A stretch of 52,645 bases of DNA from a virus (taxonomy: Duplodnaviria > Caudoviricetes): IMG/VR virus record IMGVR_UViG_3300048858_000048, positions 1-52,645 of that record. One strand, written 5' to 3'. The notes beneath the pieces were generated by a model that saw nothing but the letters and a program-made list of their open reading frames with translations, was not told the DNA's origin and ran no database searches. Shown here piece after piece: positions 1 through 52,645 of the stretch. The position numbers and the translations under genes are program-made. Numbering within the stretch: position 1 is the stretch's first letter; every line of letters starts with the position of its first letter.

Positions 1-127
1 AAATAGATCCTAAAACGGCCGGGAAGATTAGAAAGGCGCTGGGGCTCAAGTGAGCCCCAGCCATACCGTTTCCGACAGAATAGACCCTGCATTCATCCAT
101 GATTACATCAAAGGCACAACCATCATG
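1..127. repeat. Terminal direct repeat, left copy (identical to 52519-52645); probable circular-assembly overlap
   Basis: AAATAGATCC...CAACCATCATG is present at both ends; 127 nt matches a common assembler k-mer size; the join cleanly links hicA to hicB. Confidence 0.95.
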
Positions 128-553
128 AAAACCTACAGCTATGCAGCTGTTTTCGAGCCGACCGATCGAGAAGGCGGCTTCACCGTCACATTTCCGGACG
201 TTCCGGAGGCCATCACGGAAGGCGAGGACATGGCCGACGCGCGCGCCATGGCAGAGGATGCCCTCGGCGTCGCTTTGCTGACCTATCTGGAGATGGGCCG
301 CACCCTGCCCGAACCCGTCGCAACCGGCACCATGATCGCGCCGGCCCCCGAGATCGCGATGAAGATCGCGGTCATCGAGACCTTCCGCGCATCGGGCCTG
401 TCCCGCACGGAACTGGCGCGACGGATCGGCAAGGATGAGAAGGAGGCTCGGCGCCTGCTCGATCCGGACACCGCCACGAAACTGCCGCTGATGAACAGCG
501 CACTGGCCGCCATGGGCCAGCGCCTGGTCATTGGTCTGGAAGCCGCCGAATAG
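125..553 (+). CDS. hicB: HicB-family antitoxin with C-terminal HTH
   Basis: MKTYSYAAVFEP..GGFTVTFPDVPEAITEGE..EDAL is the HicB N-terminal motif; follows hicA across the circular join; start moved to ATG at 125. Confidence 0.9.
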   Translation: MKTYSYAAVFEPTDREGGFTVTFPDVPEAITEGEDMADARAMAEDALGVALLTYLEMGRTLPEPVATGTMIAPAPEIAMKIAVIETFRASGLSRTELARRIGKDEKEARRLLDPDTATKLPLMNSALAAMGQRLVIGLEAAE

Positions 554-558
554 CTCGC

Positions 559-2478
559 TCATGCTGCAACCCTTTCCCGCTCGACGGCAAGGTGGTTGCA
601 GTTTGCCGCGACCAGCGCCTTAGCCACCGGCGGGCAGACACTGTTGCCGACGCAGGAGACCTGCACGGATTTCGAGAACGGCACCCAGAGCGGGCCGCCG
701 TTGTGGCCGATCTTCGTCCGGTGATGGAAACCGTCGATCTTGTAGTCAGGCGGGAAGCCCTGCGCGTTGAACAGCTCGCGCGGGGTCAACATGCGCATGC
801 CGATATCGACGATGACGAAGGTCAAGCCATTCACTTCGACGGTGACGAACTCACGCTCGTCCCATAGGCCGTGCGCCCGCATGAAATCCGCGACCTGGCG
901 CGCCCTTGCCGCCTGCGCTTCCGTGAAAGGCGGCACGTCGACGACAGCCTCGATATGAGCATGACGCTGCTTGACGGTCGCCGTGCGCATAGCCTCGTCT
1001 TCTCGCGAGCCTTCCCCGGTCCTGAAGTATGATTGCAGGTATGGCAGGATGAGCTGGCTTTTGCCCTGACCGTCCGCCATCGTGGTCGCCAAAGGCTGAT
1101 CAACAGGATGGCCGGTCGAGGTTCCGAACTGCCGGGCGATATAAGCAGAAGCGACCTGCTGGTGACTGCCCGATTGCGTGATCGTCGAGATCGCATCGTC
1201 CATCGACCGGCCGGGATTCACCCCGCCGAGGCGTCGGCTGTCATTGTTGGCTTGCGCCATCCATGCGCACATGACCGAGTTTTGATCCTTGTCGCTGGCG
1301 GTGATCGTATGCGCCTGTCCGTCGACAGGACGGTTTGCGCCACCCTGTTGCGCATAGGTCAGCACCGGCGCCAGAAGGCCAAGCGGCGCCGCGCCTCCGG
1401 GTCGCTTGATGAAGCTGTTGGCCGTGATCGTCGGCATCTGGCCGCCCATGTCGATCCCGGTCGCACCAGTATTGAAGCGCTGAATAGATGGAGAGATGAG
1501 CGCCTTTTCGCCACGATGGGCGGCCGTGATTACCCTTGCCGGCTCATCGATACTCTCGATGCGTCCGCCATGGGTGAGATTGACCAGGAAAGGACGGTTC
1601 GCGCGGATCACGAACCGGTCGAGGCCCCGAGCAATCCGGGCATGGGAGGCAGAAGCAAGCGGCCGAACAGACCGCAGGCCATGCTTTGCCCAAATCTCCT
1701 CCGCCGTGTCGAAGATCGAAGGGCAAGGAATGCTCCAGTCGATACAGTCCGCGACGATCGGCCAGGGAAGCTTGCGACCGGCAATCACGTCGGCATCGCT
1801 AGGGCTGCCGTGCGTCGGCTGCGGCCAGACGATCTTCTGTCCATCAAATCTCATGATGATGAACAGCCGCTTCCGAATCGTCGGCGCGCCGTAGTCGCGG
1901 CCGCGCAGCTCGCGCATCTCGATCTTGGCGCCGAGGCTGCGGAGCTTCCGGCACCATTTCTGGAACGTCTCCCCCTTGCGGTCAGGGTCGGGCATCTGCC
2001 CCTTTGCCGTTTCCATCAACGGCCCGTAATCCTTGAATTCCTCGACGTTCTCCATGATCACGACGTCGACCTTGCCGCCGCTTTGCTGGATACGCTCGAT
2101 CCAGCCGGGAATGATCCAGCATAGATCGCGGATATTGCGCGCCACCGGCTTGCCGCCCTTGGCCTTCGAGAAGTGCTTGCAGTCAGGAGAGAACCAGGCG
2201 AGGCCGATATGTTTTCCGCGCAGATGGTCGAGCGGGTCGATCCGATAAACGTTTTCCGAAAGATGGATCGTCTCCGGATGGTTGACCTCATGCAGCGCCA
2301 GGGCGTCGGCATCATGGTTGATCGCATAGTCCGGCGACCGGCCAAGCGCCTGCTCGATACCGGTCGAGGCGCCACCACCACCGGCGAAACTGTCGATGAT
2401 GATAGGCCGGCCGGGATCCGGATTGAGAAGTGTCGAGGCCGCCAACGCAGTGAGCAGCGAAGCTTGGTGCATGTTCAT
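559..2478 (-). CDS. DNA cytosine-5 methyltransferase (long phage type)
   Basis: Motif I FAGGGG, catalytic motif IV SPDC, motif VI ENV, motif VIII RKRLF, C-terminal GNSV. Confidence 0.92.
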   Translation of the reverse strand: MNMHQASLLTALAASTLLNPDPGRPIIIDSFAGGGGASTGIEQALGRSPDYAINHDADALALHEVNHPETIHLSENVYRIDPLDHLRGKHIGLAWFSPDCKHFSKAKGGKPVARNIRDLCWIIPGWIERIQQSGGKVDVVIMENVEEFKDYGPLMETAKGQMPDPDRKGETFQKWCRKLRSLGAKIEMRELRGRDYGAPTIRKRLFIIMRFDGQKIVWPQPTHGSPSDADVIAGRKLPWPIVADCIDWSIPCPSIFDTAEEIWAKHGLRSVRPLASASHARIARGLDRFVIRANRPFLVNLTHGGRIESIDEPARVITAAHRGEKALISPSIQRFNTGATGIDMGGQMPTITANSFIKRPGGAAPLGLLAPVLTYAQQGGANRPVDGQAHTITASDKDQNSVMCAWMAQANNDSRRLGGVNPGRSMDDAISTITQSGSHQQVASAYIARQFGTSTGHPVDQPLATTMADGQGKSQLILPYLQSYFRTGEGSREDEAMRTATVKQRHAHIEAVVDVPPFTEAQAARARQVADFMRAHGLWDEREFVTVEVNGLTFVIVDIGMRMLTPRELFNAQGFPPDYKIDGFHHRTKIGHNGGPLWVPFSKSVQVSCVGNSVCPPVAKALVAANCNHLAVERERVAA

Positions 2479-3920
2479 GCCGCGACCACCGCCTCCGGCT
2501 GCCTTGACAGCACCCTATGACGCCCAAGTCGCCCCGGCTCACTGGCCGGCGAGATCAACCCGGCCTCGACGAACTCGGCAATGATCGCTTCGACCGTGCT
2601 GTCGCGACGGCCGATCCCTCGGCAAAGGTCCGCGCGATCGAATTCGTCCCGCTGCAGGACCCATGCCCGCGCGTCCTCCCGGTCACGATCGACCCGCTCG
2701 TGAAGTTCCAGTTTAGGTGTCGTGCGGGGCGCATCGTCGAAGTACATACCAAGCGCATGACCGCCCTCGCCCGGCTCCAGCGCTTCCGTGTCGACATGGT
2801 CTTTCCAGTCGATCCGACGCATGATCGTCGTATCGCCATAGCTGCCGTCCTCTTGCCGTTCCCAAACCACCCAAGCCGTGTTCATGCGGCTGGACGCCTT
2901 CGGCCCCTCGTAGCCTTCGCGATGCATCATCGGCAGACGGCGCTTGAAGACATAGATCCGCGCTGGCGGGCATTCATCCATGACGAAATTGCGATCCTCG
3001 TCGGCAAAGCCGGCCAGGACATTGAGGTTCAGCAGTAGCGCCAGCTTGCGTGGTTTGTAGACGCGCAGCGCATGCGCGATGAAAGCATTGAGAACTTCGC
3101 CATAAGGCGGGTTAGTGACGATATCCGGCCCCTCCCCCACGGCTTCCGGCTTGCTCAGAAGGAAGTCGCCAACCGACTGGACGATCCCGGCCTCGGAGAT
3201 GGCGCCGCGATCCTCGATATCTGACAGGATTACGTCATAGCCATGCGCCTCGAAGACACGGCCGATGGCGTTGTAACCGCAGGCCGGGTCGAAGACCGTT
3301 GACGTGAAACTCTCGTGGGCCAGAAGCGAGATCGTCGCGACATCGGGCGTCTGATAGAAGTTCTGACCCCGATCTTCCTTGGAAGCCGAGGCCGTGCCGA
3401 TCGCGGCGCGCAGGCTGTTCTTCGTCGGCAGCATGCCCTGCGCGGAAATCCCAACGATGGTGCGGCGGATCACGCCTGGCTCTTTCAGCTCCGCATCACG
3501 CAGCTTTCGGGCGTCGAGAACCACCTGTTTGTCGAGGCCGAAATCTTCAAGCCGAAAAAGGTCTAGAGTTTCGACCTTTTTCGGCCGCCCTCGCGAGGCC
3601 ACCACGCCGGCCGCCTGCGCCGCGTCATATTCGTTAGCGAGCGCCACCCGTGCGAGGCTGCCGATTTCGAGCGCTTCGACCACCATTGCATGCGCCCGGC
3701 TGATGACGCCTTCGCTCGCTTTCATGCGGGCCGCGAAGCCGTGTGCGGCCTTGGCCTCATCATAGGCGCCCTCCGACAGCATCATCGCCGCGCGCATGTC
3801 GCCGGCGTCGAGGAGCTGCCGCGCCTGGTTGATGCGTTCGGCAAGGGCGCGGGTATCGAAACGGTCGACGGGAACCGGAACCGGCTGCGGATCGGGGAGA
3901 GCGACGGCCGCCATCATCAC
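2475..3920 (-). CDS. Amino (N6A/N4C) DNA methyltransferase with N-terminal helical extension
   Basis: FYQTP, SAM-binding FDPACG, catalytic TNPPY; overlap-coupled to neighbours. Confidence 0.75.
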   Translation of the reverse strand: MMMAAVALPDPQPVPVPVDRFDTRALAERINQARQLLDAGDMRAAMMLSEGAYDEAKAAHGFAARMKASEGVISRAHAMVVEALEIGSLARVALANEYDAAQAAGVVASRGRPKKVETLDLFRLEDFGLDKQVVLDARKLRDAELKEPGVIRRTIVGISAQGMLPTKNSLRAAIGTASASKEDRGQNFYQTPDVATISLLAHESFTSTVFDPACGYNAIGRVFEAHGYDVILSDIEDRGAISEAGIVQSVGDFLLSKPEAVGEGPDIVTNPPYGEVLNAFIAHALRVYKPRKLALLLNLNVLAGFADEDRNFVMDECPPARIYVFKRRLPMMHREGYEGPKASSRMNTAWVVWERQEDGSYGDTTIMRRIDWKDHVDTEALEPGEGGHALGMYFDDAPRTTPKLELHERVDRDREDARAWVLQRDEFDRADLCRGIGRRDSTVEAIIAEFVEAGLISPASEPGRLGRHRVLSRQPEAVVAA

Positions 3921-4111
3921 ACCGACCTCGCTTCGTCCATAAGCTCCCGCGTTTCCGCCTCGGAAAGGCCGGCCTCGCGGGCAATATCGGACAGTGAAAG
4001 ACCATCCGCCATCAGCTGGCGAACGCGCGCCGCCTTCGATTCGCGCACCAGGTCATCGGCTGTCAGGTCGTCTTGCGGCAAGGCCGCTTTCTGTGCTGCC
4101 CTGCTCATCAT
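3917..4111 (-). CDS. Small HTH-like hypothetical protein
   Basis: GLSLSDIAREAGLSE resembles an HTH; ATGA overlaps on both sides. Confidence 0.6.
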   Translation of the reverse strand: MMSRAAQKAALPQDDLTADDLVRESKAARVRQLMADGLSLSDIAREAGLSEAETRELMDEARSV

Positions 4112-4581
4112 GCACCCCTCGCCGCGACCTTGCGGTCAATCGTGCTGCAGGCGGCAGAAAGCGAAGAAGCGATGTCGGAGATCTTCTCCCGAAGGTCGCG
4201 CAGCTCCGCCAGGGAATATTCGCCATCGGAAAGAGCCTCGGAATGAGCGCCGAGATATTCGGACACCTCGTGCATGATGGTGGCGGTCTCCATCGAGAGC
4301 GATCGCACGCGCGATGCAGGAGAAGCGCTTTCGGTGGCAGCCGGCAGGCGGGCATAAGCAGAGGAGAGGATCGACCGCCCGAGATCCGCTTCAAGCGCGA
4401 TCATTGCCCAGTGCGGCATCTGGTCGGCCATGTCCCAGTTGTTCCAGTTTCCGACCACAGTCTTGCCGCAGCCGAGGAATAGGGAAATACGGTCAATGCC
4501 GCCGGCAGCCGCGATTAGATCGCGAGTGCTGCCCTTGATGGCCGGGAACCACGGCTGCTTGATGATGTCTTCTTTTTTCAC
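4108..4581 (-). CDS. Phage regulatory protein, CII-like
   Basis: Downstream of cro; 'TRDLIAAAGG..ALEADLG..ALSDGEYSLAE' pattern typical of alphaproteobacterial CII-like proteins; GGAGG RBS. Confidence 0.6.
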   Translation of the reverse strand: MKKEDIIKQPWFPAIKGSTRDLIAAAGGIDRISLFLGCGKTVVGNWNNWDMADQMPHWAMIALEADLGRSILSSAYARLPAATESASPASRVRSLSMETATIMHEVSEYLGAHSEALSDGEYSLAELRDLREKISDIASSLSAACSTIDRKVAARGA

Positions 4582-4916: not shown

Positions 4917-5042
4917 TCACTTGGCACCGGCCTTTCCGGCGGCGCGATGGCACCAGGCGATCGCACCCAATCCAATACAGCCGCCAACAAGACTGCCGGC
5001 GAGACCACCAAGCACAACCACGAGAACCGTTTGAACGATCAT
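4917..5042 (-). CDS. Small single-TM membrane protein (41 aa)
   Basis: MIVQTVLVVVLGGLAGSLVGGCIGLGAIAW; ATG overlaps cro stop (ATGA). Confidence 0.5.
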   Translation of the reverse strand: MIVQTVLVVVLGGLAGSLVGGCIGLGAIAWCHRAAGKAGAK

Positions 5043-5296
5043 TGCAGGGCCTCGACAACCGAACGAGGCTCCGGACGCACAATAGCGCAGTCGGGCCACA
5101 CAGCGCCGGCCGGCCAATTGTCTGAGAACCAGTGAATTGCCTCGTTAAAGCGAGCCGTAGTCAAGTCCGCCCCCGTCCTTAAAGCCCCCAATTTCTTGCT
5201 GTCCGCAAACACGCGACCGCTCACAGTTTTTTCCGCCACGCCAGAGGCGCGTTGATACGCGTCAGAAATCAGAAGCAGGTCAGCGATGTCGAACAT
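5039..5296 (-). CDS. Cro-like repressor
   Basis: Divergent from cI; MFDIADLL..YQRASGVAEKTVSGRVFADSKKL..WFSDNWP is a typical alphaproteobacterial phage Cro-like sequence. Confidence 0.7.
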   Translation of the reverse strand: MFDIADLLLISDAYQRASGVAEKTVSGRVFADSKKLGALRTGADLTTARFNEAIHWFSDNWPAGAVWPDCAIVRPEPRSVVEALQ

Positions 5297-5306
5297 GGAA
5301 TCACTA

Positions 5307-5380
5307 TCGGTTAAATTACCGAATAGCGCAACGATTTTATTACCGATATCCAATCTTCTGCATTCTGGTAAAAATACCAG
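5307..5380. promoter_or_regulatory. cI/cro operator region (OR-like): three related 16-bp sites
   Basis: TCGGTTAAATTACCGA (5307-5322), ACGATTTTATTACCGA (5331-5346, half-site), CTGGTAAAAATACCAG (5365-5380). Confidence 0.75.
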
Positions 5381-5381
5381 A

Positions 5382-6116
5382 ATGGAAAGCACCATTTATG
5401 AGCGCATCAAAGAGCGCCTTGACGCCTTGGGTTTGACGGAGACCACCGCCGCCAGAGCTGCTAATTTAAGCGAGGGAGCGATCCGAAATATCCGCCGTAG
5501 ATACGAGCGGGGCGAGCGACAGGTCGGGATCAGCTCGACCACCGCCGATAAATTGGCGCCAATCTTACAGACGTCCGTCGAATGGATCGTCGCGGGAACC
5601 GGCGAGCCGCAGGCTGCGCAACAAGCCCCACCCGCAACACCCCTCGTCCGACCAGGCCGGCCCCGCTCGAACGCTAGTTTTCCCCCGGTCTACCAGCGGT
5701 TTTCCGGAGAAACCACGCTCCCTGTGCTAGGCCAGACCAGTGCAGGCCCCAATGGTCGCTTCATCTTGAATGGGAGTGAAGTCGGCAGGGTATTCACGCC
5801 CCCGATGCTCGAAGGGGTCGAGGGCGCCTATGCTGTGCGGGTATACGGGACTTCTATGGAGCCCCGCTATTTTGCCGGCGAAACAGTCTGGATAAATCCC
5901 AGAGAGCCTGTGAGGGCGGGCGATGACGTAGTCGTTCAGTTGCTCACTGAAGTCGAGCACGAGCGGGAAAGTTATATTAAAAAGTTTGTTTCGAAATCTG
6001 CCAAGGTCACTCGCCTGTATCAATACAACCCTGATGAGGGCGAAGCCAACGAGCTTGAATATCCTTCAGACCGCGTGTTTTCCGTACATAAAATTGTTTT
6101 CCACGCTTCCGTTTGA
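5382..6116 (+). CDS. CI-like repressor, HTH plus S24 autopeptidase domain
   Basis: N-terminal HTH (AARAANLSEGAIRNI), Ala-Gly site (TSAG), catalytic Ser (GTSMEP) and Lys (YIKK). Confidence 0.9.
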   Translation: MESTIYERIKERLDALGLTETTAARAANLSEGAIRNIRRRYERGERQVGISSTTADKLAPILQTSVEWIVAGTGEPQAAQQAPPATPLVRPGRPRSNASFPPVYQRFSGETTLPVLGQTSAGPNGRFILNGSEVGRVFTPPMLEGVEGAYAVRVYGTSMEPRYFAGETVWINPREPVRAGDDVVVQLLTEVEHERESYIKKFVSKSAKVTRLYQYNPDEGEANELEYPSDRVFSVHKIVFHASV

Positions 6117-6371
6117 GGGATTGGCCGCTGGCAGCCACCGAGGCCGAACGGTCAGATTGCGCGCGCTCGGCGGTTGCGGCGGGCAAGCGCGGCAAAGGAA
6201 CTTCCTGCAGAGGTCCGAATAGGTCTGAACACCCTTTTGCGACGCTTGGAACAGGTCTGGCAGACCGAGCACAGTCGAGCGCCCGCAGTCATCACAAGCG
6301 ACGTAAACGCTGGTCAGTTCGACCACCAGTCTGTGTCCATCAGCGGCGCGGTTTGCGGTTCCATGCGACAT
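6066..6371 (-). CDS. Zinc-ribbon protein, candidate SOS-induced antirepressor
   Basis: MSHG...CDDC...CRAC; GGAG RBS; LexA-type box just upstream. Confidence 0.6.
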   Translation of the reverse strand: MSHGTANRAADGHRLVVELTSVYVACDDCGRSTVLGLPDLFQASQKGVQTYSDLCRKFLCRACPPQPPSARNLTVRPRWLPAANPSNGSVENNFMYGKHAV

Positions 6372-6386
6372 GCCTTTCTCCTGTTT

Positions 6387-6401
6387 GTTCCCAGTTCGTT
6401 C
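6387..6401. promoter_or_regulatory. Alphaproteobacterial LexA (SOS) box GTTC-N7-GTTC
   Basis: GTTC CCAGTTC GTTC, about 15 nt upstream of the 6371 start codon. Confidence 0.7.
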
Positions 6402-6489
6402 CGGGTGGTTGTCTTTAAAGCGAATCACTCGCGAAGAGTCCAGAGGATTCATTGGCGCCGCGATCAAAAAGTTAATGACTCCATATAGA

Positions 6490-6563
6490 TCGGTAATATT
6501 ACCGAAACGGGCTTGTATATCGGTAAATTTACGGCTAGCTTTTCGGCATCGGTAATCGACCGA
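6490..6563 (+). promoter_or_regulatory. Early-operon promoter/operator region (OL-like)
   Basis: Perfect palindrome TCGGTAATATTACCGA (6490-6505), TCGGTAAATTTACGGC (6520-6535), TCGGTAATCGACCGA (6549-6563); putative -35 TTGTAT (6513), 17 nt, -10 TAGCTT. Confidence 0.75.
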
Positions 6564-6970: not shown

Positions 6971-7321
6971 ATGAGAAACAAGGAAGAGGCCGGTCAGATT
7001 GACCGGGCGGCCGGCACGCGCTTGCGCACTATCCGGAAAGTGCGCGGCATATCGCAGGAAGCGCTTGCCGCCGCTATCGGCGTCACGTTTCAGCAGGTGC
7101 AGAAATACGAGAAGGGCACAAACCGAATTGCGATCTCGACGCTCGTTCTCATATGCCGCGCCTTGAATTGCACGCCGATGGAAATCATCGGCGAGGATCT
7201 CGATCGGAGCGCCACCGCGACGATCGACACGCTGGCAAGCCACAACGCGGATCTGGTGCGCCGCCTTGCCGAAGTCGCCAAGATCGCCCGGCTCCCGCAG
7301 CGTGGGGAGATGCGCATATGA
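6971..7321 (+). CDS. XRE-family HTH regulator
   Basis: RKVRGISQEALAAAIGVTFQQVQKYEKGTNRI. Confidence 0.9.
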   Translation: MRNKEEAGQIDRAAGTRLRTIRKVRGISQEALAAAIGVTFQQVQKYEKGTNRIAISTLVLICRALNCTPMEIIGEDLDRSATATIDTLASHNADLVRRLAEVAKIARLPQRGEMRI

Positions 7322-8941: not shown

Positions 8942-8955
8942 GGAGGCAAACGCCG

Positions 8956-17756: not shown

Positions 17757-17759
17757 AGT

Positions 17760-37941: not shown

Positions 37942-37959
37942 TTCCTGAAGCCTTTTTTA

Positions 37960-38605: not shown

Positions 38606-38620
38606 GGACTTTCTCCTGAG

Positions 38621-41401: not shown

Positions 41402-41492
41402 GGCCGATTGTCCTTGATTGAGTCAAGCCGAGGCATATCCGCGCCCGTCCGAGGGCGCGGGATCATGCCGGCGATGATGGAGGGATTGGGGT

Positions 41493-42206: not shown

Positions 42207-42246
42207 GTCCTCTTTGTTGGTGGATTTTAAGGGAGAAGGCGGCGGA

Positions 42247-43587: not shown

Positions 43588-43601
43588 GTTGGTTTCCTTG
43601 C

Positions 43602-43859: not shown

Positions 43860-45475
43860 TCGTCCGCCTCCTTCTCTTCGTCTTTTTCGTCAGGAGGCGG
43901 CACGGCCGGCGCATTTACGCGATCATAAGGAGACCGCATTCCGCGCGAGGTATACCATCTGTGCTCCGTCTCCTGTCGCAGCATCAGTTCGTCAGCGTCA
44001 TAGCCGAGTTCGGCAGCCTCGATCTCGACCGAGGAATTGTAGTTTTCGAGACGCTTGCCCGATGCGTCGGCGCTCTTCTTGTCGTCGGCGGATGGCTTGG
44101 CAGGGCCGCGCCATTGTGCCCATAGGAGACGATCCCGATTGGCCCGAAACGCGGCATAACCGCCCTTGATCGGAATGCGACCGAAGAAGATGGCCTCGTC
44201 GAGCCAAGGTCCGTACATCGCATCGCCGATCGGAGCGACGCCCCGTTCGCGCCGGCGAAGAACAATCGGCCAGATCGATGATATGCCGACACGCGAGCTG
44301 GCATAGGTCGAATTGCGATTATCGAGCGTGAAGCTCTCATAGGTGACGCCGATCGCGCGGGCCATGTCACGCGACAGGCTCATGTTGAACGGGTCGTATT
44401 GCGGACCAGGAGTCACCGCACCCTTGATGTCCAGCTTTTCGCCCGGCGCCAGGTGGTTGATATTCGGGTCGCTCCCGAAATACAGCTTCGACTGACGTGC
44501 CTTGCTGATCTGCGAGGCGTACATGCCGATGAACTGATCTGCCAACTCGGCCGCAACATCGCCGGTTCCGCTGTCTTTGAGGGCGGCCAGGGCCTCGAAC
44601 GCCTCCTGACTTGGCGCCTCGCTCGTGAGGCTGATGCCGATCGCCGTTTGCAGCAGCGCCATCTGCAGCGTCGCGTCTTCCAGCATTTCATGCTGAATGT
44701 TCTTCCGCACCGCAGCCGCCAGAGGAGATATCCCTCGGACATCGCGAGAGCCAGTAGGCTCGAAGACATGGAACGTCTTGACGTTGCCACGCTGATCATA
44801 GGCCGGCCAGTCTTCCGTCGACAGGGAGAAGGTATCTTCCGTGCGGAAGCGATAGCCGACCGGGCGCCAGTTCACGTCATGCAGAACGCCTTGGATCATG
44901 CGCTCGGTTTCGGCGCTGTCTTGCACGAGCCGCATCGGCGACAGGACGCAGGGCTTCGTTCCCGTGGCGACGCCATAGTGAGCCCGATTTCGAGGGTCCA
45001 TCCAGCCAATAATGCCGACCGACTCGCCGAACACGATCTGGTCGCGAAGGCCGATTTCGAACTGTTGCTGGACCGTGAACTTGCCGCGAAGGTGACTTTC
45101 GCGCGCATTCCACGACCAATACTTCCATTCGGCCTTGATCAGGCTGACCAGGGCGCGAATTTCGACGTCGTCATAGCCCATCTTGCGAAGGGTGACCGGA
45201 TCTGGCGTCGGGTTGAGCTGCAGTTCGGTACCGATCGTGTCGGACACGATCTGGTTCAAGGCGCCCGAGAGGCGCCCGGAATTGCGGACCATGTCCTGCG
45301 CGAGACCAGCGACCCTCCGCCAAGAGCGGCGGATCTCGTCCCGGCTATCGGTCAAGGGCGCCTGCCGCGTAGTGATGACGGCCGACCGCGTGTCCCGCAA
45401 ATAACCAGCGGAAGGCGCTGGACGCGGCGGCGTCGCAACGGACGCCGGCACGATAGTCGGCACGGAAGTTTTCAT
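43856..45475 (-). CDS. Portal protein (lambda family)
   Basis: DMVRN, VFGE, VRGISPL, L.PGE, TYASSR. Confidence 0.92.
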   Translation of the reverse strand: MKTSVPTIVPASVATPPRPAPSAGYLRDTRSAVITTRQAPLTDSRDEIRRSWRRVAGLAQDMVRNSGRLSGALNQIVSDTIGTELQLNPTPDPVTLRKMGYDDVEIRALVSLIKAEWKYWSWNARESHLRGKFTVQQQFEIGLRDQIVFGESVGIIGWMDPRNRAHYGVATGTKPCVLSPMRLVQDSAETERMIQGVLHDVNWRPVGYRFRTEDTFSLSTEDWPAYDQRGNVKTFHVFEPTGSRDVRGISPLAAAVRKNIQHEMLEDATLQMALLQTAIGISLTSEAPSQEAFEALAALKDSGTGDVAAELADQFIGMYASQISKARQSKLYFGSDPNINHLAPGEKLDIKGAVTPGPQYDPFNMSLSRDMARAIGVTYESFTLDNRNSTYASSRVGISSIWPIVLRRRERGVAPIGDAMYGPWLDEAIFFGRIPIKGGYAAFRANRDRLLWAQWRGPAKPSADDKKSADASGKRLENYNSSVEIEAAELGYDADELMLRQETEHRWYTSRGMRSPYDRVNAPAVPPPDEKDEEKEADE

Positions 45476-47472
45476 CGCTTGTTCCACTCTTTTGCCAGAT
45501 CGTCGAGGCTCTTTGCCTTCGGGGCAGGGGGAGGCTTGAGGGGCGGAGGGGCGCTCACGGCCCCGAGGGTCGAGAACAAACCATCCTCGAAATCAAGCTG
45601 CGCGTCCTGAGCTGGTGTCTCGCGGTCCGCCTCAAAGCGTTGCCAGATAGCATCTGGCAGGCCGCGCACCCCGAACTTGATTGCGGCGGCCTCCGCCTGG
45701 TTCATCGTGTCCAGACCTTCGTTCGCCTGGTTGGGATCTTTCTCCCACTTGTATTCGACGAAACCATCATTCCGTTTCTTCGGCACCCGCTTTTCCGCCG
45801 TCAGCTGGCGGTAATACTCATCATCCATGCCGCGCGGGAAACCGACATAGCCGCGTTCTAGCGGGTCGGTTTTGCCGACATTGCGATAGAGCGCCATCTT
45901 CAGGACCGAAGCGTTGAAGTTGTAGAATCGCTTCGAATACTTCAGCAGCTGGCCCGTCTTGTGATTTCGCTCTTTCTTTACCCGCTGCAGCAACGGAGCG
46001 TTCTCGCTCGATGCGCCGCGCACCATGATCAGTTTTCCGGCGGGATGCCGCCGAGCCCATTCCCAGACTTCCTCGGTATAGGCATTGCCGTCGATCGCGC
46101 TGAGATCCGGCGCAATGCGATGCCCGCAGGCATTCATCCAAGTCTGGTCGATCAGAGCGTCGAGGCGGGTCTGACAGGTCGCGTCCGATATGTGACCAGG
46201 TATGACACCATAGTCGACGACCCACCGGCGGAATTCGGTTCCCCACGCGACGAGTTGCCATTCTATGCGATCGTCCTGACAGTCGATGCCAAGCGTCAGA
46301 ATGAGGCCGCCTAGCGGGATCTTGCCACGGTCGCGGTCAGAATTTGCTCCGCGATCGCGAAGCGTCTCCCAAGGTGGAGACTCCCCAGCCGTCACATATG
46401 CCCGGCCGACCGTATCATTCAGGAACGTCTGCTCTGATGCCGGATCGCCCTTGGCGGCAAGCCATTCGCGCGCGATGCGCTCCCAGCTCTGCAGGGGAGA
46501 ATACGCGGACCAGATGTAGAAGGACCGATGAAACCGCTTCTGCGAAGGGTTGTGCGCCCGCCACTCCAGCCCGTCCAGCATCTGCTGGCGATGATATTGC
46601 TCGATCTCGCTCCCGCACTCGATGCAGGTGAAATGCGCCCTTTCCGGATGCTCCTCATCCAGGTTGGAGAGCATGTTCTCCCACTCAAGAACCTGGTAGT
46701 GCCCGCAACCCTCGTGAGGGCAGGGGACATAGGGGAACTCTTGGCTGCCGTCCTCAAAGTTCTTCGTGATCCGACAGCCGGGCATGACCAGCGGCGTCGA
46801 TATCTTGAAGATCTTGGCTTCCTCGACGCCACGGCTTCGGCTGTCCGCCTGCGACTCCGGATCGCCACCCTTGTTCGTTTCCCATTTCGACAGGTCGTCT
46901 TGAACCTGCCGCTTCATCGTGACCTGCGACAGAGACGCCGGCGAATTGGCGCCGGAGATCTGGATTGCGCCGCGACCGTCCAGCCGTTCCTTGTACAGGA
47001 GCGAGTCCGAGCCATCTCGGCTCTTATTGGAAACCACGCCACCCCGGTTCTTTCCGAGGAAGATGTTCGCCAGCGCCGTGGTGCTGCGGAGCATGGGAGC
47101 AAGCTTCATCTTGCTCCAGCGTTCGGCATTGTTCTCGGTTGGATGGACGTACAGAAAGAACGACGGGTCCATGTCCAGCGAGCCGCCGGTGAAGATATTG
47201 GCAACCACCGTGCCGCCGATCTGCGCCGACTTCATCAACGACACGATGCGGCAGAGATCTTCCGGCGAGAGCGCCCGCAGCAGCTCGTCGAAATAGCGGA
47301 ACAGGCGGCGATTGTACGGACCAGGATAGTCCGGGCTTTCCAACTCCGAGAAGACGATGTTGTCCTCTGCCCATCGCAGATAGTCGACGGCGGCCGGCGG
47401 CTCGATCACGTTGGCGACGACGTCGTAAGCGACCCGTTCAGCGTTCGCCGTGAAAACCGTCATCGACGTCAT
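45472..47472 (-). CDS. Terminase large subunit (lambda gpA family)
   Basis: MKSAQIGGT, GANSPASL, ISTP, VPCPH..C, LTLGIDCQ, NEGLD. Confidence 0.95.
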   Translation of the reverse strand: MTSMTVFTANAERVAYDVVANVIEPPAAVDYLRWAEDNIVFSELESPDYPGPYNRRLFRYFDELLRALSPEDLCRIVSLMKSAQIGGTVVANIFTGGSLDMDPSFFLYVHPTENNAERWSKMKLAPMLRSTTALANIFLGKNRGGVVSNKSRDGSDSLLYKERLDGRGAIQISGANSPASLSQVTMKRQVQDDLSKWETNKGGDPESQADSRSRGVEEAKIFKISTPLVMPGCRITKNFEDGSQEFPYVPCPHEGCGHYQVLEWENMLSNLDEEHPERAHFTCIECGSEIEQYHRQQMLDGLEWRAHNPSQKRFHRSFYIWSAYSPLQSWERIAREWLAAKGDPASEQTFLNDTVGRAYVTAGESPPWETLRDRGANSDRDRGKIPLGGLILTLGIDCQDDRIEWQLVAWGTEFRRWVVDYGVIPGHISDATCQTRLDALIDQTWMNACGHRIAPDLSAIDGNAYTEEVWEWARRHPAGKLIMVRGASSENAPLLQRVKKERNHKTGQLLKYSKRFYNFNASVLKMALYRNVGKTDPLERGYVGFPRGMDDEYYRQLTAEKRVPKKRNDGFVEYKWEKDPNQANEGLDTMNQAEAAAIKFGVRGLPDAIWQRFEADRETPAQDAQLDFEDGLFSTLGAVSAPPPLKPPPAPKAKSLDDLAKEWNKR

Positions 47473-48137
47473 AGACCGTCAGCCTCCGCATCCTCGGTTA
47501 CCAGCTCGCTTTCGAGAAACTCCGGCAGCTCGATCGCCTTCATCCGCATCTGGCGGGCCGCATTCTCGCGCACCTTCCGGAATTCCTGTCGAATGAGGTG
47601 CTTCACGTCCCGCTCTGGCAGCTTGAACGCCGCAGATATTGCGGTTGCCATGTCGGTGAGGCCGCCCTCGAAGATGTCGAGCATTGAGCTGGCAATCCGG
47701 CCCATGGCCTTCGTCGCCTCGCTGGTCTCCGTAAACCGGCCGCGCTCTTTCTCGTCCTCGATCGCGGCGTTGCGGTTCGCCCGCTCCGCCTGCTCTAGCT
47801 TCGCGAGCTTGAGCTTCATGTCGATGTTCGGCGCGGGCGGCGTGTCTGGCGGGTCCTTCGGGTAGCCGGCCGGCGGTGAACGATCGAAGGGGAACCCATG
47901 ATCGGCGGAGGCGGGCTCCGGATCTAACCTGGTGTCGAGCCCATTGCCGAGGCTCTGCGAAACATCCCGAGTAAGCCGCAGATCAGCTTTGGCTTTCTCG
48001 ACGAATATCCGAGCACTGCGACCATGGCCCTGCATCGCGGCGGCGCTGATCTTGCCTTCGGACAAGTATTGGCTGATGCGGCCGGGCGAGACGCCAATCA
48101 AAGCGGCGAACTCTCCTTTGGAGACGGCGGTGTCCAT
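47469..48137 (-). CDS. Terminase small subunit (Nu1-like)
   Basis: N-terminal wHTH SKGEFAALIGVSPGRISQY then coiled coil; overlaps terL. Confidence 0.85.
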   Translation of the reverse strand: MDTAVSKGEFAALIGVSPGRISQYLSEGKISAAAMQGHGRSARIFVEKAKADLRLTRDVSQSLGNGLDTRLDPEPASADHGFPFDRSPPAGYPKDPPDTPPAPNIDMKLKLAKLEQAERANRNAAIEDEKERGRFTETSEATKAMGRIASSMLDIFEGGLTDMATAISAAFKLPERDVKHLIRQEFRKVRENAARQMRMKAIELPEFLESELVTEDAEADGL

Positions 48138-48139
48138 TG

Positions 48140-48290
48140 TCTTTACCGCTTCTTTAGTTCTTTAGCCTGATCTTTAGTTCTTTAGGCTTTGAGTTTAGGG
48201 TCAGACTAGGCAGATTCAGCAGTCGCGCGGCCCCGTAGGGCTGTTTTTCCCTGATACGGTCCCTAAAGGGGGGGTGGGGGTAGGGGTGTG
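48140..48290. other. Putative cos/packaging region with TCTTTAG repeats
   Basis: TCTTTAGTTCTTTAG at 48151 and 48171, TCTTTAC at 48140, G-run at 48267-48288; non-coding, upstream of terS. Confidence 0.5.
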
Positions 48291-48337
48291 GCAGATGAGA
48301 TACATCGGCCCGCATCAGGTCAGGCAGCCCGGCCGCC

Positions 48338-48910
48338 TCACGGCATGAGCTTCGCAAGCGCCGCGTCAACACGGTCTCGCATCAAAGGTCCGGCGATGCG
48401 ATCGAAGGCAGCCTTCGTGGCGCCGGTCGTCATCTCTGCCGGGATGATCACGCCGGAACGGGCGAACGTGATACGGCTACCGGACCGGTTGAGGCGGTAG
48501 AAGGCGTGTCCGTCAAACTTCTGGACTTCCTTGCGGTTCGGGAAACGCCCGCCGCGCATGAAGGCGCCAGGGTAGAGCGTCGATTTCCCGAAGGGGCGAG
48601 CCACCACACCCGCCTCGGTCTCTTTCGCGTTGAGGTATTTCAGGCGGATGTTTCCGCCCCGCGTTACCATCTCATAGGTCAGCCGGCCCGGTCTTGCCCG
48701 CGACGGATCGCCGACCGCCTTCACTATCGTCTTGCGCGGCAGGCCCGTCTGTGCGGTTAGGTTGCGGATGACCTGAGTTTTCGCCCGGTCGCCGACCTGG
48801 TTGGTGATCCGAGGAAGCACGTTAGGGAAGCGCTCGTCCAAGATCTCGACGCGCTTCCGATACTGCTTCAGGACATCATCAGCCCATTTTACGCCAACGA
48901 TCCCCGCCAC
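48338..48910 (-). CDS. Phage tail/neck protein (lambda gpZ-like)
   Basis: Basic protein; NQVG.RAKT, YPGAF, GP..; first late gene. Confidence 0.6.
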   Translation of the reverse strand: MAGIVGVKWADDVLKQYRKRVEILDERFPNVLPRITNQVGDRAKTQVIRNLTAQTGLPRKTIVKAVGDPSRARPGRLTYEMVTRGGNIRLKYLNAKETEAGVVARPFGKSTLYPGAFMRGGRFPNRKEVQKFDGHAFYRLNRSGSRITFARSGVIIPAEMTTGATKAAFDRIAGPLMRDRVDAALAKLMP

Positions 48911-49126: not shown

Positions 49127-49792
49127 TCATAGCTTTTCGAGAAAGGCAATGGGCATGTTGTCGACGACGACAAAATTACCCTCGACCGCTACGCGCACCT
49201 TGCCCCTCGGCTCCCGCTTCCATTTCACGCTCATCACGACGCACTCGAACCCGGAGAGCGGCCCGCTTACGACCCGGCATCGCGAGGCCTGCCCGATCGT
49301 CCTATCAACAGGCAAATCCGCGATAACGGGAGCGGAAATAGGCTGGAAAACAACGACATGGGCGTCCGGTATGATGTGGTAGCCATTCGCCCCGCCTACA
49401 AAACCGGCAATGTTCTTCTGTTTTCGGATCCCCGCGAATGCCTCTGCAGACGGTACAAGGCGCACCAGGAGATACCCCGGAAAGAACGCTCGAAAGCCCT
49501 CGACCTTCTTCCCGCGCCTGACTTTTTCGATGGTTTCACGCGGCGCTAGAACCTCAACGCCGCAATCGGTCAGAAGCTTTTCCACAGTGAAATCGTGGCC
49601 GTGAGCGACCTTCAGGCAGAACCATCGCGCATCTTTCGCGCGTGATTCGGCGATCTCGATCGAAGCCGCCCGCAGTTCGGCACGGGCGAGTTTCAAAACC
49701 CGCCCTTCGCGGACCTTCCGGCGCTGCTCGATCTCGGCAAGAGCAACCTCATCATTGTCGATACGAGCAGCTGCTCGCTTACCCCCTGTCAT
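49127..49792 (-). CDS. NusG/RfaH-family transcription antiterminator
   Basis: NGN domain (WFCLKV, FFPGYLLV) and KOW motif (RVVSGPLSGF). Confidence 0.88.
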   Translation of the reverse strand: MTGGKRAAARIDNDEVALAEIEQRRKVREGRVLKLARAELRAASIEIAESRAKDARWFCLKVAHGHDFTVEKLLTDCGVEVLAPRETIEKVRRGKKVEGFRAFFPGYLLVRLVPSAEAFAGIRKQKNIAGFVGGANGYHIIPDAHVVVFQPISAPVIADLPVDRTIGQASRCRVVSGPLSGFECVVMSVKWKREPRGKVRVAVEGNFVVVDNMPIAFLEKL

Positions 49793-51059
49793 GGAAAACC
49801 TCTTTCGCATGCTGTTCAAAAGCTGAAATTCCCCCCGGCCCCCCGGCAGGAAACCAGACAACCGGCATTGCGCCGGTATCGGGAAGCCACGGATACACCC
49901 AGTCGAAGTGCCACTGCCGCCAGTCTTCCCAGACCTCAGAGCCGACCGGAACCGGCTCGCAACAGGGCTTCATTGCGGCAAAGCGGGCATCGACCTGCGC
50001 CGGCCCCTTGCTTGCGTCCTGCAGGCGGTTGACCTCGGGAAAGCCCTCAAGGATATGGCGCCGCCGCAGTTCCTGTTCTTCAAAATCGTCCGGAAAGACC
50101 AGATTGCCGTCACTGGCGATGAGGATGCCCTTTGCGGCGGCATACCGCTGCGCACCGGCAAAGCTCGATTTCGAAAGAACTTCGAAGCTCTTCGTCACCG
50201 TGGCGCGGAGGCCGTCCGGCACGTCGACGCGAACCGGCCCGCCGAGCAATGCCATCATCCTGGCCGAGGCCCAGACAGGCCCGAATATCGGAGCCGTTAT
50301 CGTCCTACCAACCGGAGCGACATTCGCGGCCATCAGTGCCGCAACATCGAGGAATTTCTTCGCCCGCAGATAGATCCCGAGAGAGACCGGCTTTGGGCCG
50401 CACGCGGCAAGATAGTCATCCCGGCGTTGCTCCGCGAGCAACCTTTCGTCAGGCGTCAGGTTCGCGAACTGGGTGACCGCCCATCCTGTATCCTTGCTGA
50501 GTGACCCCGGCCAAGGATTGTTGTGGCGTCCGATTTCTAGAGCCTTGACGCGCTTTTCGAGCGACTTGGAATTTTCTTCCGCATCCTCTTCGTTGCGGTC
50601 CTCATCTTGCCGGGTCCCTCGCAGGGGTTTCCTTACAGGTTCTCTTACAAGATTCCTGTCCAGATTCTGGACTCGGCTTTCCCCGATTTCTGGACTCGGC
50701 TTTTGCCAATTTTTGGACTCGGCTTCCGCCGATCCGTGTCCAGTTTCTGGACTCGGCTTAATAGAAGAGAATTGCGCAAAATGCGGTTCGAAAGGAAAAT
50801 AATACCGGGTTCGCTCCTGCTTTCTGGAGCCGGGCTTTTTCCGCTGTTCTCGCGCGATAAGACCCATTTCTTCCAACTGTTTCAGATAGGTATTCAGCGC
50901 CGACCGGGAGACGTTGCACATGCCGGCAAGCCGCTCTTGGCTCGGAAACGCACCGCCGTAATCCGGGTTGTGGCAGTCAGCCAGGCGCAGGAGAACGATC
51001 ATCAGGTTGGGCGGAATGTCGCGCTGCTCGAAAGCCCAGTTCGTGGCCTTGTGGCTCAT
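49779..51059 (-). CDS. Phage replication initiator (wHTH, lambda O-like)
   Basis: A.NWA..VLLRLAD..FPSQERLA.MC..SRS.L..YLKQLEE.GLI; internal iterons. Confidence 0.8.
   Translation of the reverse strand: MSHKATNWAFEQRDIPPNLMIVLLRLADCHNPDYGGAFPSQERLAGMCNVSRSALNTYLKQLEEMGLIAREQRKKPGSRKQERTRYYFPFEPHFAQFSSIKPSPETGHGSAEAESKNWQKPSPEIGESRVQNLDRNLVREPVRKPLRGTRQDEDRNEEDAEENSKSLEKRVKALEIGRHNNPWPGSLSKDTGWAVTQFANLTPDERLLAEQRRDDYLAACGPKPVSLGIYLRAKKFLDVAALMAANVAPVGRTITAPIFGPVWASARMMALLGGPVRVDVPDGLRATVTKSFEVLSKSSFAGAQRYAAAKGILIASDGNLVFPDDFEEQELRRRHILEGFPEVNRLQDASKGPAQVDARFAAMKPCCEPVPVGSEVWEDWRQWHFDWVYPWLPDTGAMPVVWFPAGGPGGISAFEQHAKEVFHDRG
50658..50759. repeat. Four iterons, putative lytic replication origin
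   Basis: TT(C/T)TGGACTCGGCTT at 50665, 50688, 50711 and 50745, inside the initiator gene. Confidence 0.85.
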
Positions 51060-51732: not shown

Positions 51733-52286
51733 AGGTCACCTTTCTTCCAGAGGTAATATTCGGCGCGCAGGCCATAGAAGGCTTCACGCGCCGCGCCAGG
51801 ATCGTTCAGCTGGCTTTTGGATTGGATGTTGAGCAGGAACTTCAGCCGGGTATCGGCAGCGCGGGCATCGGCAACAGGTCCGCCCGCGCCCTTCCCTTCG
51901 AGGAACCGGCGAAACATCACCTGGTCGCAGAGCGACTTTGCAGAGAAAGCCGCGCTGTTCTGGTTCTTTTGCCGCGCCGGCGGTTCAACCTGCTCGGCTG
52001 GACGCGCCGGACCCTGTATCGCCATGATCCGGGCAGTGGCTCGGTCGATGAGCGTCAACAGGAAGCGGAGGGCATCGGCCGATCCGCAGAGCAAGTCCTT
52101 CTCTTCGGATGTCGCGCCACGATGGATAGTGGCGATGCAGTCGGCCTCGCCGCCCTTCCGGACGATAACGATATGCGTCTGGTCACCCTCCGGCTCCACC
52201 ATCCATGAATAGCCTTCGAGGATGTCTCGAAGAGCCTTCAGGCGAGCGAGGTGACGTTTTTCCGTTGTCCTGTCTTCTGAAATCAC
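51729..52286 (-). CDS. Hypothetical phage protein
   Basis: FRRFLE..L...LNIQSK..LN; overlap-coupled to the DUF4031 gene. Confidence 0.65.
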   Translation of the reverse strand: MISEDRTTEKRHLARLKALRDILEGYSWMVEPEGDQTHIVIVRKGGEADCIATIHRGATSEEKDLLCGSADALRFLLTLIDRATARIMAIQGPARPAEQVEPPARQKNQNSAAFSAKSLCDQVMFRRFLEGKGAGGPVADARAADTRLKFLLNIQSKSQLNDPGAAREAFYGLRAEYYLWKKGDL

Positions 52287-52297
52287 GAGCGGAATTC

Positions 52298-52349
52298 CGG
52301 ATAAAAATATCCGAAACCGGTTGACATTCGGACAAAAATATCCGAAACT
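52298..52349 (+). promoter_or_regulatory. hicAB promoter with two palindromic operators
   Basis: CGGATAAAAATATCCG (52298-52313) and CGGACAAAAATATCCG (52329-52344) flank TTGACA (52321-52326). Confidence 0.75.
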
Positions 52350-52373
52350 CTATACATCGAAACGGAGACGGGA

Positions 52374-52571
52374 ATGGACAAAAGAGACCGCTTCATCGCT
52401 GAAATCAGAGAGGAAGCAAAAGCAGCCGGTCTTTCCTTCCGGCTTAGCAAGTCGAAAGGAAAAGGCGGCCACGCCACGATCTGGGTGGGAGACCACTTCA
52501 CTACCCTCCCCAGCCGGGAAATAGATCCTAAAACGGCCGGGAAGATTAGAAAGGCGCTGGGGCTCAAGTGA
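52374..52571 (+). CDS. hicA: HicA-family toxin
   Basis: 65 aa basic protein with GKGGH catalytic His motif, TTLP..EI, IRKALGL; upstream of hicB. Confidence 0.88.
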   Translation: MDKRDRFIAEIREEAKAAGLSFRLSKSKGKGGHATIWVGDHFTTLPSREIDPKTAGKIRKALGLK

Positions 52572-52645
52572 GCCCCAGCCATACCGTTTCCGACAGAATA
52601 GACCCTGCATTCATCCATGATTACATCAAAGGCACAACCATCATG
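52519..52645. repeat. Terminal direct repeat, right copy (identical to 1-127)
   Basis: Exact match to 1-127. Confidence 0.95.

Follow-up and report, generated by a model that had tools for sequence, protein, structure and literature searches.

We analysed the entire IMG/VR virus record IMGVR_UViG_3300048858_000048 (Duplodnaviria; Caudoviricetes), a stretch of 52,645 nt hereafter called the window, which carries the genes of a tailed phage together with a replication and partition cassette of the kind found on small plasmids. IMG/VR assigns the record to its direct terminal repeats class, and CheckV sets its completeness at 100. Open reading frames (ORFs) were called by codon-usage score, 70 translations were searched against Pfam, and selected ones were also searched against PHROGs, NCBIfam and PADLOC. 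A single long lytic array occupies the minus strand from ~5.4 kb across the join of the record's ends to ~20.4 kb. In order, this array encodes a Cro candidate, a weak CII-like protein, two methyltransferases, small ORFs, an O-like replication initiator and a NusG-like protein, and continues with a candidate small terminase subunit (TerS), the large terminase subunit (TerL), a lambda-type head, a P2-type tail, a Dam methyltransferase and a lysozyme. On the plus strand, between 5.3 and 20.4 kb, lie genes for a CI-like repressor, a clamp-like protein, a DUF5131 protein, a PAPS-reductase-like protein, a 721-aa exonuclease-domain protein and a DUF1643 protein, followed by the maintenance block. 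Scans of the window for tRNA genes and Rfam families found none.

Positions 1-127 are identical to 52519-52645, an exact 127-nt match that leaves 52,518 bp of unique sequence with a G+C content of 60.8%. As 127 is a common assembler k-mer size, we take this terminal direct repeat to be an overlap left by circular assembly and not a physical repeat at the DNA ends. The probable source is one public soil metagenome run, which contains all sampled words of the window; four other runs with shares of just 0.05-0.06 were left out of the analysis. The Logan assembly of the probable source run holds a single contig of 52,548 bp (30 bp more than the unique length) at a depth of 72.8. The last base of the window is position 9,854 of this contig, which extends past the window end, and thus a second assembler closes the circle at another breakpoint. 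In the 12.6 kb of the Logan contig examined, depth was flat and there were no alternative joints. Additionally, a HicB-like gene (125-553, plus strand) and the 65-aa ORF that precedes it (52374-52571, plus strand) bridge the assembly join. This gene pair and the two assemblies indicate a circular or concatemeric template, which is not proof of a plasmid. An earlier note on this DNA, written from its letters alone, had claimed a complete circle with identical 127-nt ends, and the exact match, the repeat class, the CheckV value and the second assembly with its other breakpoint all bear this out.

The maintenance cassette comprises a resolvase, an mRNA leader, Rep, a conserved non-coding block, ParA and a 119-aa partner, all co-oriented with cI. 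Homology and context mark Rep (17939-18667, plus strand) as the probable plasmid replication initiator, a winged-helix protein of the pAgK84 RepA family and of the MOB-suite rep_cluster_1775/1420 type; its length of 242 aa is that of the gene call stored in the protein collection. A tblastn search with Rep matched 232 plasmid records (query coverage of 80% or more in 81) and only 5 phage records. The matching plasmids come mostly from Rhizobiaceae, Paracoccus, sphingomonads and Zymomonas. Rep is 57% identical over 242 aa to the pAgK84 protein annotated 'repA, replication protein A', and 60% identical to the sole plausible initiator among the 13 coding sequences of the 9.3-kb plasmid pAtCFBP4996c. 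The family is large, with 559 proteins at E ≤ 1e-10 in a 90%-identity collection and 838 clusters at 50% identity (E ≤ 0.001). Five listed homologues on 49-52-kb contigs are 54-68% identical to the window's Rep, and four of these five are among its eleven nearest. As a separate observation, one Rhizobiaceae genome contig (G322:C1) holds two equally scoring Rep copies, at 8891-9592 and 47778-48479, which lie 38,887 bp apart and possibly reflect a dimer or tandem assembly of a 39-kb element.

We inspected the gene maps of eight closed alphaproteobacterial plasmids of 9-46 kb. All eight carry a Rep homologue, seven a recombinase homologue, and six a CopG/ribbon-helix-helix gene just before Rep, which the window lacks. 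ParA is annotated in six of the eight, followed in three by a small annotated partition protein, and a toxin-antitoxin pair lies nearby in four. MOB-suite types five of them as rep_cluster_1420 or rep_cluster_1775. The order repA, parA, small segregation gene (17939-20049 in the window) is also found in pcAMD1, pRvVAR0630e, pAtCFBP4996c and pDC06. Together with pAgK84, these four plasmids represent the pAgK84/pTAR type, with Reps 47-60% identical to that of the window, the same leader hairpins and the same conserved block after rep. Across the eight records, ParA follows Rep in six, a small partner or an unnamed ORF comes next in four of these six, and toxin-antitoxin genes are frequent. These plasmids differ from the window in carrying conjugation or mobilisation genes and cargo, and no phage genes.

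The earlier note had called the Rep pTAR-like. A passage in a report on Rhizobium sp. NT-26 describes the replicon of its 15-kb plasmid, with a repA-like gene, parA and a segregation gene, as built like that of pTAR (PMC3673622); the Rep encoded there and that of the window share 55% identity. The label is therefore indirect, resting on homology to pAgK84 RepA and on that published statement, and not on a comparison with the RepA of pTAR. Within Pfam, Rep itself gives a weak winged-helix match (HTH_36/LexA_DNA_bind), and NCBIfam held nothing specific for Rep, for the 119-aa partner or for the O-like protein. An AlphaFold (AF2) model built from 40 family members (pLDDT 87.5) predicts a central winged helix. 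A Foldseek search of this model against the Protein Data Bank (PDB) gave no match at E ≤ 0.001, and a VIA-align wide search returned winged-helix domains only, the best being Zur at Z 8.5.

The non-coding DNA on both sides of rep is conserved. Upstream, the rep leader (17757-17938, plus strand) contains three hairpins (17760-17791, 17808-17844 and 17860-17883) that RNAalifold finds conserved in an alignment of 180-nt leaders from 12 replicons, namely five phage-plasmid-type elements, the second copy from Rhizobium sp. CFBP 8762 and six plasmids. In these hairpins 93.9% of alignment cells are paired, compared with 35-51% when the partners are slid by 1-3 columns, and 11 of 25 pairs show double-sided changes, compared with at most 5 in the slid controls. 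None of 500 shuffles matched the covariation score. Related sequences can score above their shuffles even when they form no structure, which makes the slid controls the more appropriate comparison. The G-U pairs occur on the sense strand and suggest that the folding molecule is the rep mRNA leader. A fourth hairpin (17913-17929), seen by eye only, would sequester the Shine-Dalgarno sequence. Together, the three covarying hairpins and this fourth one suggest RNA-level control of Rep. Read on the minus strand, hairpin 3 is followed by a T-run, a signal too weak to claim an antisense RNA, and promoter and terminator scans of 17000-20500 were not above shuffles (1 versus 0.8 and 4 versus 4.4, respectively). 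Downstream, the AT-rich end of rep and a GC-rich non-coding block after its stop codon make up a candidate oriV (18640-18760). The block contains 33 columns that are invariant among 11 replicons whose Reps are 47-79% identical to the window's, and we propose that it is the replication origin.

ParA (19010-19693, plus strand) is a partition ATPase of 227 aa, of the short type without an N-terminal helix-turn-helix. It matches VirC1/CbiA and phrog_164, and scores 111 bits against NF041546, under the cut-off of 180. Its identity is 72% to the ParA of a Rhizobium rhizoryzae plasmid discussed below and 44% to those of pcAMD1 and pRvVAR0630e. The start of the 119-aa partner gene (19690-20049, plus strand) overlaps the parA stop by 4 nt. 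The partner has 17 homologues, which have in common an invariant FDARSLR motif and, judged by eye, a ribbon-helix-helix-like C-terminal segment; the R. rhizoryzae homologue bears the UniRef name 'Stability/partitioning determinant'. Complex prediction weakly supports an interaction between ParA and this protein, with an ipSAE of 0.36 against 0.01 for the best control, a mark reached by 58 of 80 solved complexes and 2 of 110 mismatched pairs, although passes at or below 0.60 are more often wrong than right unless the pairing is likely beforehand. In these predictions the partner had a pLDDT of 62 or more, and the agreement in contacts between runs was 79% or higher. Thus, of the resolvase-Rep-ParA-ParB-like block described in the earlier note, the first three members are upheld by hidden Markov model (HMM) matches or homology, and the ParB-like partner by the UniRef name of its homologue and, weakly, by the complex prediction. 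Upstream of parA, three GAACCGA heptads, two of them inside exact GAACCGAGTTC 11-mers, form a candidate centromere or operator (18844-18909). A type Ib partition system, which combines a short ParA with a small centromere-binding partner and a repeat centromere, is a possible classification.

The gene pair at the join may be a further maintenance element. The HicB-like antitoxin matches PF15919 with 34.2 bits against a cut-off of 27. The 65-aa ORF before it is a candidate HicA/YcfA-like toxin with 442 homologues, of which one is named YcfA-like and one a type II toxin-antitoxin protein by a few sources. A AAAAATATCCGAAAC direct repeat occurs twice at 52303-52362 and flanks TTGACA just upstream of the 65-aa ORF, which makes this site a candidate autoregulated promoter of the HicB-linked pair.

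We searched the whole record in six frames with HMMs for integration machinery (E ≤ 1), using 14 genomes as positive controls. There were no matches to PF00589 (Phage_integrase; 14 of 14 controls positive), PF07508 (large serine Recombinase; 6 of 14) or rve (PF00665; 11 of 14). The same searches returned no RP-C, the RepC of repABC replicons (11 of 14 controls positive), and no ResT/TelK protelomerase (3 of 14). The sole recombinase detected in the window is a small serine recombinase of the resolvase/invertase type (17130-17756, plus strand; ATG at 17130), a protein of 208 aa with the N-terminus MALIGYARVS that matches PF00239 with 162 bits (six-frame match 17139-17537). Pfam named no other recombinase among the 70 ORF translations. 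Seven of the eight comparison plasmids carry a recombinase homologue of 40-56% identity, which is annotated upstream of Rep in six; no recombinase lies in the stretch of pAgK84 examined, and the match in pAtCFBP4996c falls on no listed gene. We propose that the window's enzyme serves in plasmid multimer resolution. The absence of tyrosine and large serine integrases that the earlier note had claimed, and for which it had called for an HMM check, therefore holds at this threshold, as does its statement that the element uses neither RepABC nor a protelomerase. In Rhizobium sp. RU36D, a relative considered further below, the small contig that carries Rep encodes a tyrosine recombinase (3948-4481; PF00589, 58.8 bits) ~1.8 kb beyond the rep end. 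This enzyme could be an analogue of the resolvase or an integrase; the window's serine resolvase lies upstream of rep instead.

Two closed circular plasmids from cultured strains share the layout of the window. The first, plasmid unnamed1 of R. rhizoryzae DSM 29514 (NZ_CP049247.1; 54,249 bp), is matched by 25 of the window's 77 ORF candidates, with identities of 56% for Rep, 72% for ParA, 57% for the partner, 77% for Dam, 71% for TerL, 50% for TerS and 60% for the sheath. It has an S24 repressor and no PF00589, PF07508 or PF00239. It differs from the window in having a primase/helicase pair instead of the O-like initiator, no resolvase, BrnTA instead of the HicB-linked pair, and head proteins that are just 24-42% identical; its annotation is simply that of a plasmid. 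The second, pAtCFBP5507b of Agrobacterium salinitolerans CFBP5507 (NZ_CP109971.1; 46,243 bp), has the same gene order, with a helix-turn-helix gene in the O position, then NusG, terminase, head, tail, lysis and Dam, and on the other strand XRE, DUF5131, ribbon-helix-helix, Rep, recombinase and ParA genes. It is matched by 19 of the 77 ORF candidates at 50% coverage or more, and is 57% identical in Rep, 72% in capsid, 65% in tape measure and 71% in Dam. It differs in TerL (26%), sheath (25%) and ParA (32%), and in having its recombinase on the other strand.

The closest relative overall is another IMG/VR record, G006 (IMGVR_UViG_3300025304_000001; 53,537 bp with a 127-nt end overlap), which is matched by 56 of the 77 ORF candidates. 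Identities reach 79% in Rep, 71% in the resolvase, 92% in the O-like protein, 93% in the NusG-like protein, 90% in HicB and 85-93% in the tail. G006 differs in ParA (34%) and CI (33%), and has no PF00589 match. As it is an uncultured assembly, it adds no evidence on physical state. Among draft genomes, a 54,776-bp contig of Rhizobium sp. CFBP 8762, whose ends overlap by 62 nt, carries homologues of both TerL (79%) and Rep (59%), and R. straminoryzae has homologues of both on one 50,978-bp contig.

The nearest cultured phage is Aurantimonas phage AmM-1 (NC_027334.1), which has the same head-then-tail order and, like the window, no annotated integrase. It is 60% identical in the sheath, 58% in the tube, 46-66% in the baseplate, 44% in the portal, 38% in a ParA-like protein and 33-39% in the repressor region. 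It differs in having no Rep homologue, a TerL of 27% identity, and primases and a DnaA-C-domain protein. AmM-1 is called temperate in a title cited by PMC5081363, and a passage of that report describes a related 37-kb plasmid prophage of Agrobacterium pusense. Other relatives share single modules. The TerL relatives in R. cremeum (on the chromosome) and R. alvei (on a 212-kb contig) have only terminase and portal in common with the window, two sheath relatives (G202 and G106) only the tail, and all four lack Rep. A clean one-to-one swap of integrase for Rep between otherwise identical phages was considered and dropped, as these four share single modules only. Judged by gene content, the relatives form a mosaic network.

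From these observations we consider it very probable that the window is the complete genome of a temperate Rhizobiaceae myophage that lysogenises as a low-copy circular plasmid, that is, a phage-plasmid. The lack of an integrase and the presence of a small-plasmid replication and partition backbone make a circular plasmid the most likely form in the host. By the working definition of Pfeifer et al. 2021 (PMC7969092), a phage-plasmid combines a complete phage gene set (packaging, head, tail, lysis and lysogeny control) with plasmid replication and partition genes, lacks integration machinery and is extrachromosomal in the lysogen; the first three characters are found here. The fourth is seen in two relatives, which are deposited as closed circular plasmids; for the window, the pertinent observation is its circular assembly. 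Thus, the plasmid lysogeny that the earlier note had proposed gains comparative support, with the same Rep family and phage layout on closed plasmids.

We suggest the following life cycle. In the lysogen, CI would shut off the leftward lytic array, and Rep would fire a theta-type origin in the conserved block at the rep end. The folded mRNA leader, possibly with an antisense RNA, would limit Rep synthesis. ParA and its 119-aa DNA-binding partner would segregate the copies, the serine resolvase would resolve dimers, and post-segregational killing may come from the HicB-linked pair in addition. Self-cleavage of the S24 repressor in an SOS response would then release the lytic programme, in which the O-like initiator would take over replication at its iterons and the gpA terminase would cut concatemers at a cos site near 48.2 kb.

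Comparable lifestyles are known elsewhere. Lysogens of P1 and N15 are kept as plasmids, and in P1 the plasmid replicon is distinct from the lytic one. P1 relies on the Cre tyrosine recombinase and type Ia ParAB, and N15 is linear with a protelomerase. The window resembles both in plasmid lysogeny, which is inferred here, in its partition genes and in dimer resolution; its Rep has no homology to theirs. It differs from P1 in having no PF00589 match and from N15 in having no ResT/TelK match.

Several observations weigh against plasmid lysogeny or against parts of its proposed machinery. The plasmid state of the element was not observed, and there is no host chromosome with which to compare coverage; the sequence is a metagenome assembly, and cos-joined, replicating or concatemeric phage DNA also gives a circular graph. 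In RU36D, whose virion genes, on a contig of 40.6 kb, resemble those of the window most (53-88%), Rep (66%) lies on a separate 8.3-kb contig beside the tyrosine recombinase, and thus some relatives might integrate. Of 401 Rhizobiaceae species genomes sampled, a Rep homologue occurs in 32 and a sheath homologue in 23; just three genomes combine the two, and the R. rhizoryzae plasmid is the single case in which both share a contig. At least three of the sheath homologues lie more than 300 kb into large contigs. By these counts, the plasmid-borne phage form is a minority. At the level of the replicon, no iterons beyond chance adjoin rep, and HTH_36 is matched by 28 of 40 members of the Rep family, all of them weakly (best E 6.8e-07). 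PDB sequence searches with Rep were empty or generic, with no sequence relative. In the structural comparison, replication initiator domains (4pta_D at Z 7.0, RctB domain 1 at Z 6.9, the DnaD N-terminal domain at Z 6.3) tied with transcription factors, and thus the fold of Rep does not decide its function. The heptad of the candidate centromere occurs 12 times window-wide against 10.3 expected, which is not above chance, and only its clustering is notable. Finally, the 65-aa ORF gave no match to the HicA domain PF07927 at E ≤ 10 and no PDB sequence hit, so that of the HicAB pair named in the earlier note the antitoxin is supported and the toxin is a candidate.

A rival explanation is an ordinary temperate phage that integrates by the small serine recombinase or an unrecognised one; the Rep-Par genes would then be captured plasmid cargo that goes unused for lysogeny, and the circle would be replicating or cos-joined DNA. 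A circular assembly is no proof of a plasmid, one serine recombinase is indeed present, RU36D has a tyrosine recombinase beside Rep, relatives of the tail module often sit in large chromosomal contigs, and the C-terminal 550 aa of the 721-aa protein and several ORFs have no assignment. However, the recombinase is a 208-aa resolvase/invertase type without PF07508 that has counterparts of 40-56% identity on seven comparison plasmids, and the R. rhizoryzae relative lacks all three recombinase families, yet is a closed plasmid. Both the leader of rep and the block that follows the gene show the conservation seen in working plasmids, and the window offers no tRNA gene as an attP-type target. We therefore regard integration as unlikely for this element.

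That the element is a plasmid with a defective prophage or tailocin-like cluster, producing no infectious virions, seems to us quite improbable. No virion has been seen, no holin or spanin was recognised by family and no helicase loader was recognised beside the O-like gene; against this, the modules for head, packaging, tail, lysozyme, repressor and replication are all present, their ORFs are unbroken and score well for codon usage, CheckV gives 100, and a cultured phage, AmM-1, shares tail genes (46-66%), portal, ParA and repressor region. The depth of 72.8 is compatible with an active element and does not prove one. It is extremely improbable that an assembly chimera joined a small plasmid to a phage genome. 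The Rep-Par cassette does occur on small plasmids without phage genes, and metagenome assemblers can join shared repeats. Yet two assemblers give the same circle, depth is flat without alternative joints in the 12.6 kb examined, and the junctions of DUF1643 with resolvase and Rep, and of the ParA region with the lysis genes, recur in G006 and in outline in the two closed plasmids. Phage-plasmid lysogeny accordingly remains the reading that we follow.

Phage-plasmids are well studied in enterobacteria; to our knowledge they have hardly been studied in plant-associated Alphaproteobacteria. The plasmid-prophage lifestyle is already known from P1 and N15, and this lineage, itself barely described, opens no new category. 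Full-text literature searches on rhizobial and Agrobacterium phage-plasmids, pAgK84 and pTAR, with supplementary phage-plasmid catalogues outside their scope, found no description of it. This agrees with the suggestion in the earlier note of a poorly described phage-plasmid group, as far as full texts go. In the parts of Pfeifer et al. 2021 (PMC7969092) consulted, the only rhizobial phage-plasmids mentioned are pLM21S1 and RHEph10.

If the element is a phage-plasmid, a common small-plasmid backbone of Agrobacterium and Rhizobium also maintains tailed phages of 46-54 kb, and some rhizobial 'plasmid' records are phages. Such phages should be incompatible, or recombine, with resident plasmids of the same replicon, and would carry methyltransferases and candidate defence genes between strains without integration. 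The cultured carriers R. rhizoryzae DSM 29514 and A. salinitolerans CFBP5507 make these claims testable at the bench. More speculatively, and with considerable doubt, we raise the possibility that the pAgK84/pTAR-type replicon is RNA-controlled in a manner reminiscent of ColE2, with a covarying leader, a short origin after rep and no iterons, and that in Rhizobiaceae it acts as a portable 'lysogeny module' that converts myophages of the mosaic network from integrative to plasmid prophages. Were this so, the lineage would provide a natural series in which to follow the switch of phages from one to the other of these two modes of lysogeny.

A second replicon, separate from Rep, belongs to the lytic array. 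The O-like replication initiator (49779-51059, minus strand) has 426 aa with an N-terminal winged helix, and matches HTH_36 (E 4.5e-11), phrog_270 (E 1.3e-30), phrog_391 and phrog_345. An iteron array (50659-50838) lies inside its ORF, after the winged helix. It consists of the 15-mer TTCTGGACTCGGCTT four times at 50665-50759, three copies exact and one with a single mismatch, and a weaker copy near 50816-50838. In a shuffle test, 1 of 100 shuffles reached five matches at three or fewer mismatches. The lambda origin likewise lies inside gene O, and the window shares with lambda both an O-like initiator and in-gene iterons. The separate initiator with iterons reported in the earlier note is thus confirmed by the phrog_270 match and the four 15-mers. 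No P-like helicase loader was recognised beside the gene, where the neighbouring ORFs gave NusG, DUF4031 or no family. The NusG-like protein (49127-49861, minus strand; PF02357, 60 bits) is encoded between the replication genes and the late genes, an order also present in pAtCFBP5507b, and we propose that it is a late-gene antiterminator.

The virion genes follow on the minus strand. The lambda-type head and packaging module (40340-48137) contains, by Pfam or PHROG matches, TerL of the gpA type (45472-47472), a lambda-type portal (43856-45487), an S49 protease, decoration protein D and a major capsid protein that matches phrog_29. The TerS candidate (47469-48137) was assigned by position, and homologues of 50-68% identity adjoin TerL in relatives. 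Directly upstream of it, TTCTTTAG occurs four times (48138-48197). The position of the region 48138-48340 upstream of terS, together with the gpA-type terminase, points to a candidate cos or TerS-binding site. Pfam identifies a P2-type contractile tail and baseplate module at 23995-39951 (minus strand), with sheath, tube, gpU, gpX, gpD-like protein, tape measure, baseplate J, W and I and a DUF4815 fibre. The late operon ends at 20417-23835 (minus strand) with Pfam matches to a Dam-type N6-adenine methyltransferase (22954-23835), a lysozyme (21956-22606) and a DUF7940 protein, and with small ORFs.

In comparison with G006, the head and packaging module is replaced as a whole (40340-48137 in the window, 26.5-34 kb in G006), with identities of just 24% in TerL, 36% in the portal and 23% in the capsid. 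Outside it, the two elements are 71-95% similar, and tail, early genes and replicons are kept.

The CI-like repressor (5286-6116, plus strand) has HTH_3 and Peptidase_S24 domains by Pfam and is of the LexA-like self-cleaving type. Divergent from cI lies the Cro candidate (5039-5395, minus strand), which has no Pfam match and is conserved adjoining the cI homologue in relatives (73% identity in RU36D, 37% in the R. rhizoryzae plasmid). Two AT-rich stretches on either side of cI, 5330-5389 and 6472-6531, contain repeats of the TTACCGATA and CGGTAATATTACCG types, and we regard these stretches, which span 5330-6531, as candidate operators. The full virion, lysis and CI/Cro set listed in the earlier note is thereby supported by family matches for the virion, the lysozyme and CI; Cro is a conserved candidate without a family match, and no family searched with the window translations named a holin or spanin.

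The remaining genes are accessory. The leftward early operon includes two DNA methyltransferase genes (559-3920, minus strand), the first for a C5 enzyme (559-2478) and the second for an enzyme that matches phrog_799 (2475-3920). Within the block that shares the orientation of cI, the DUF5131 protein (8938-9861) matches the PADLOC candidate-defence models PDC-M41B and PDC-M30B (E 7.9e-47), and a PAPS-reductase/SspD-like protein (12071-12823) is encoded near it in the same block. The Atlas model of a 275-aa protein (7318-8145) resembles two-domain phage sliding-clamp-like proteins, with TM scores of 0.55-0.66 that provide a structural lead. The first 170 residues of the 721-aa protein (12820-14985) contain an Rv2179c-like 3'-5' exonuclease domain, and the remaining ~550 aa gave no match in Pfam or PHROGs and no usable Atlas hit. 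The end of this gene and part of an opposite-strand ORF are covered by a 720-nt stretch (14550-15269) that is 99% identical to 51916-52635 of G006, where flanking matches are 77-86%, which possibly reflects a recent exchange.

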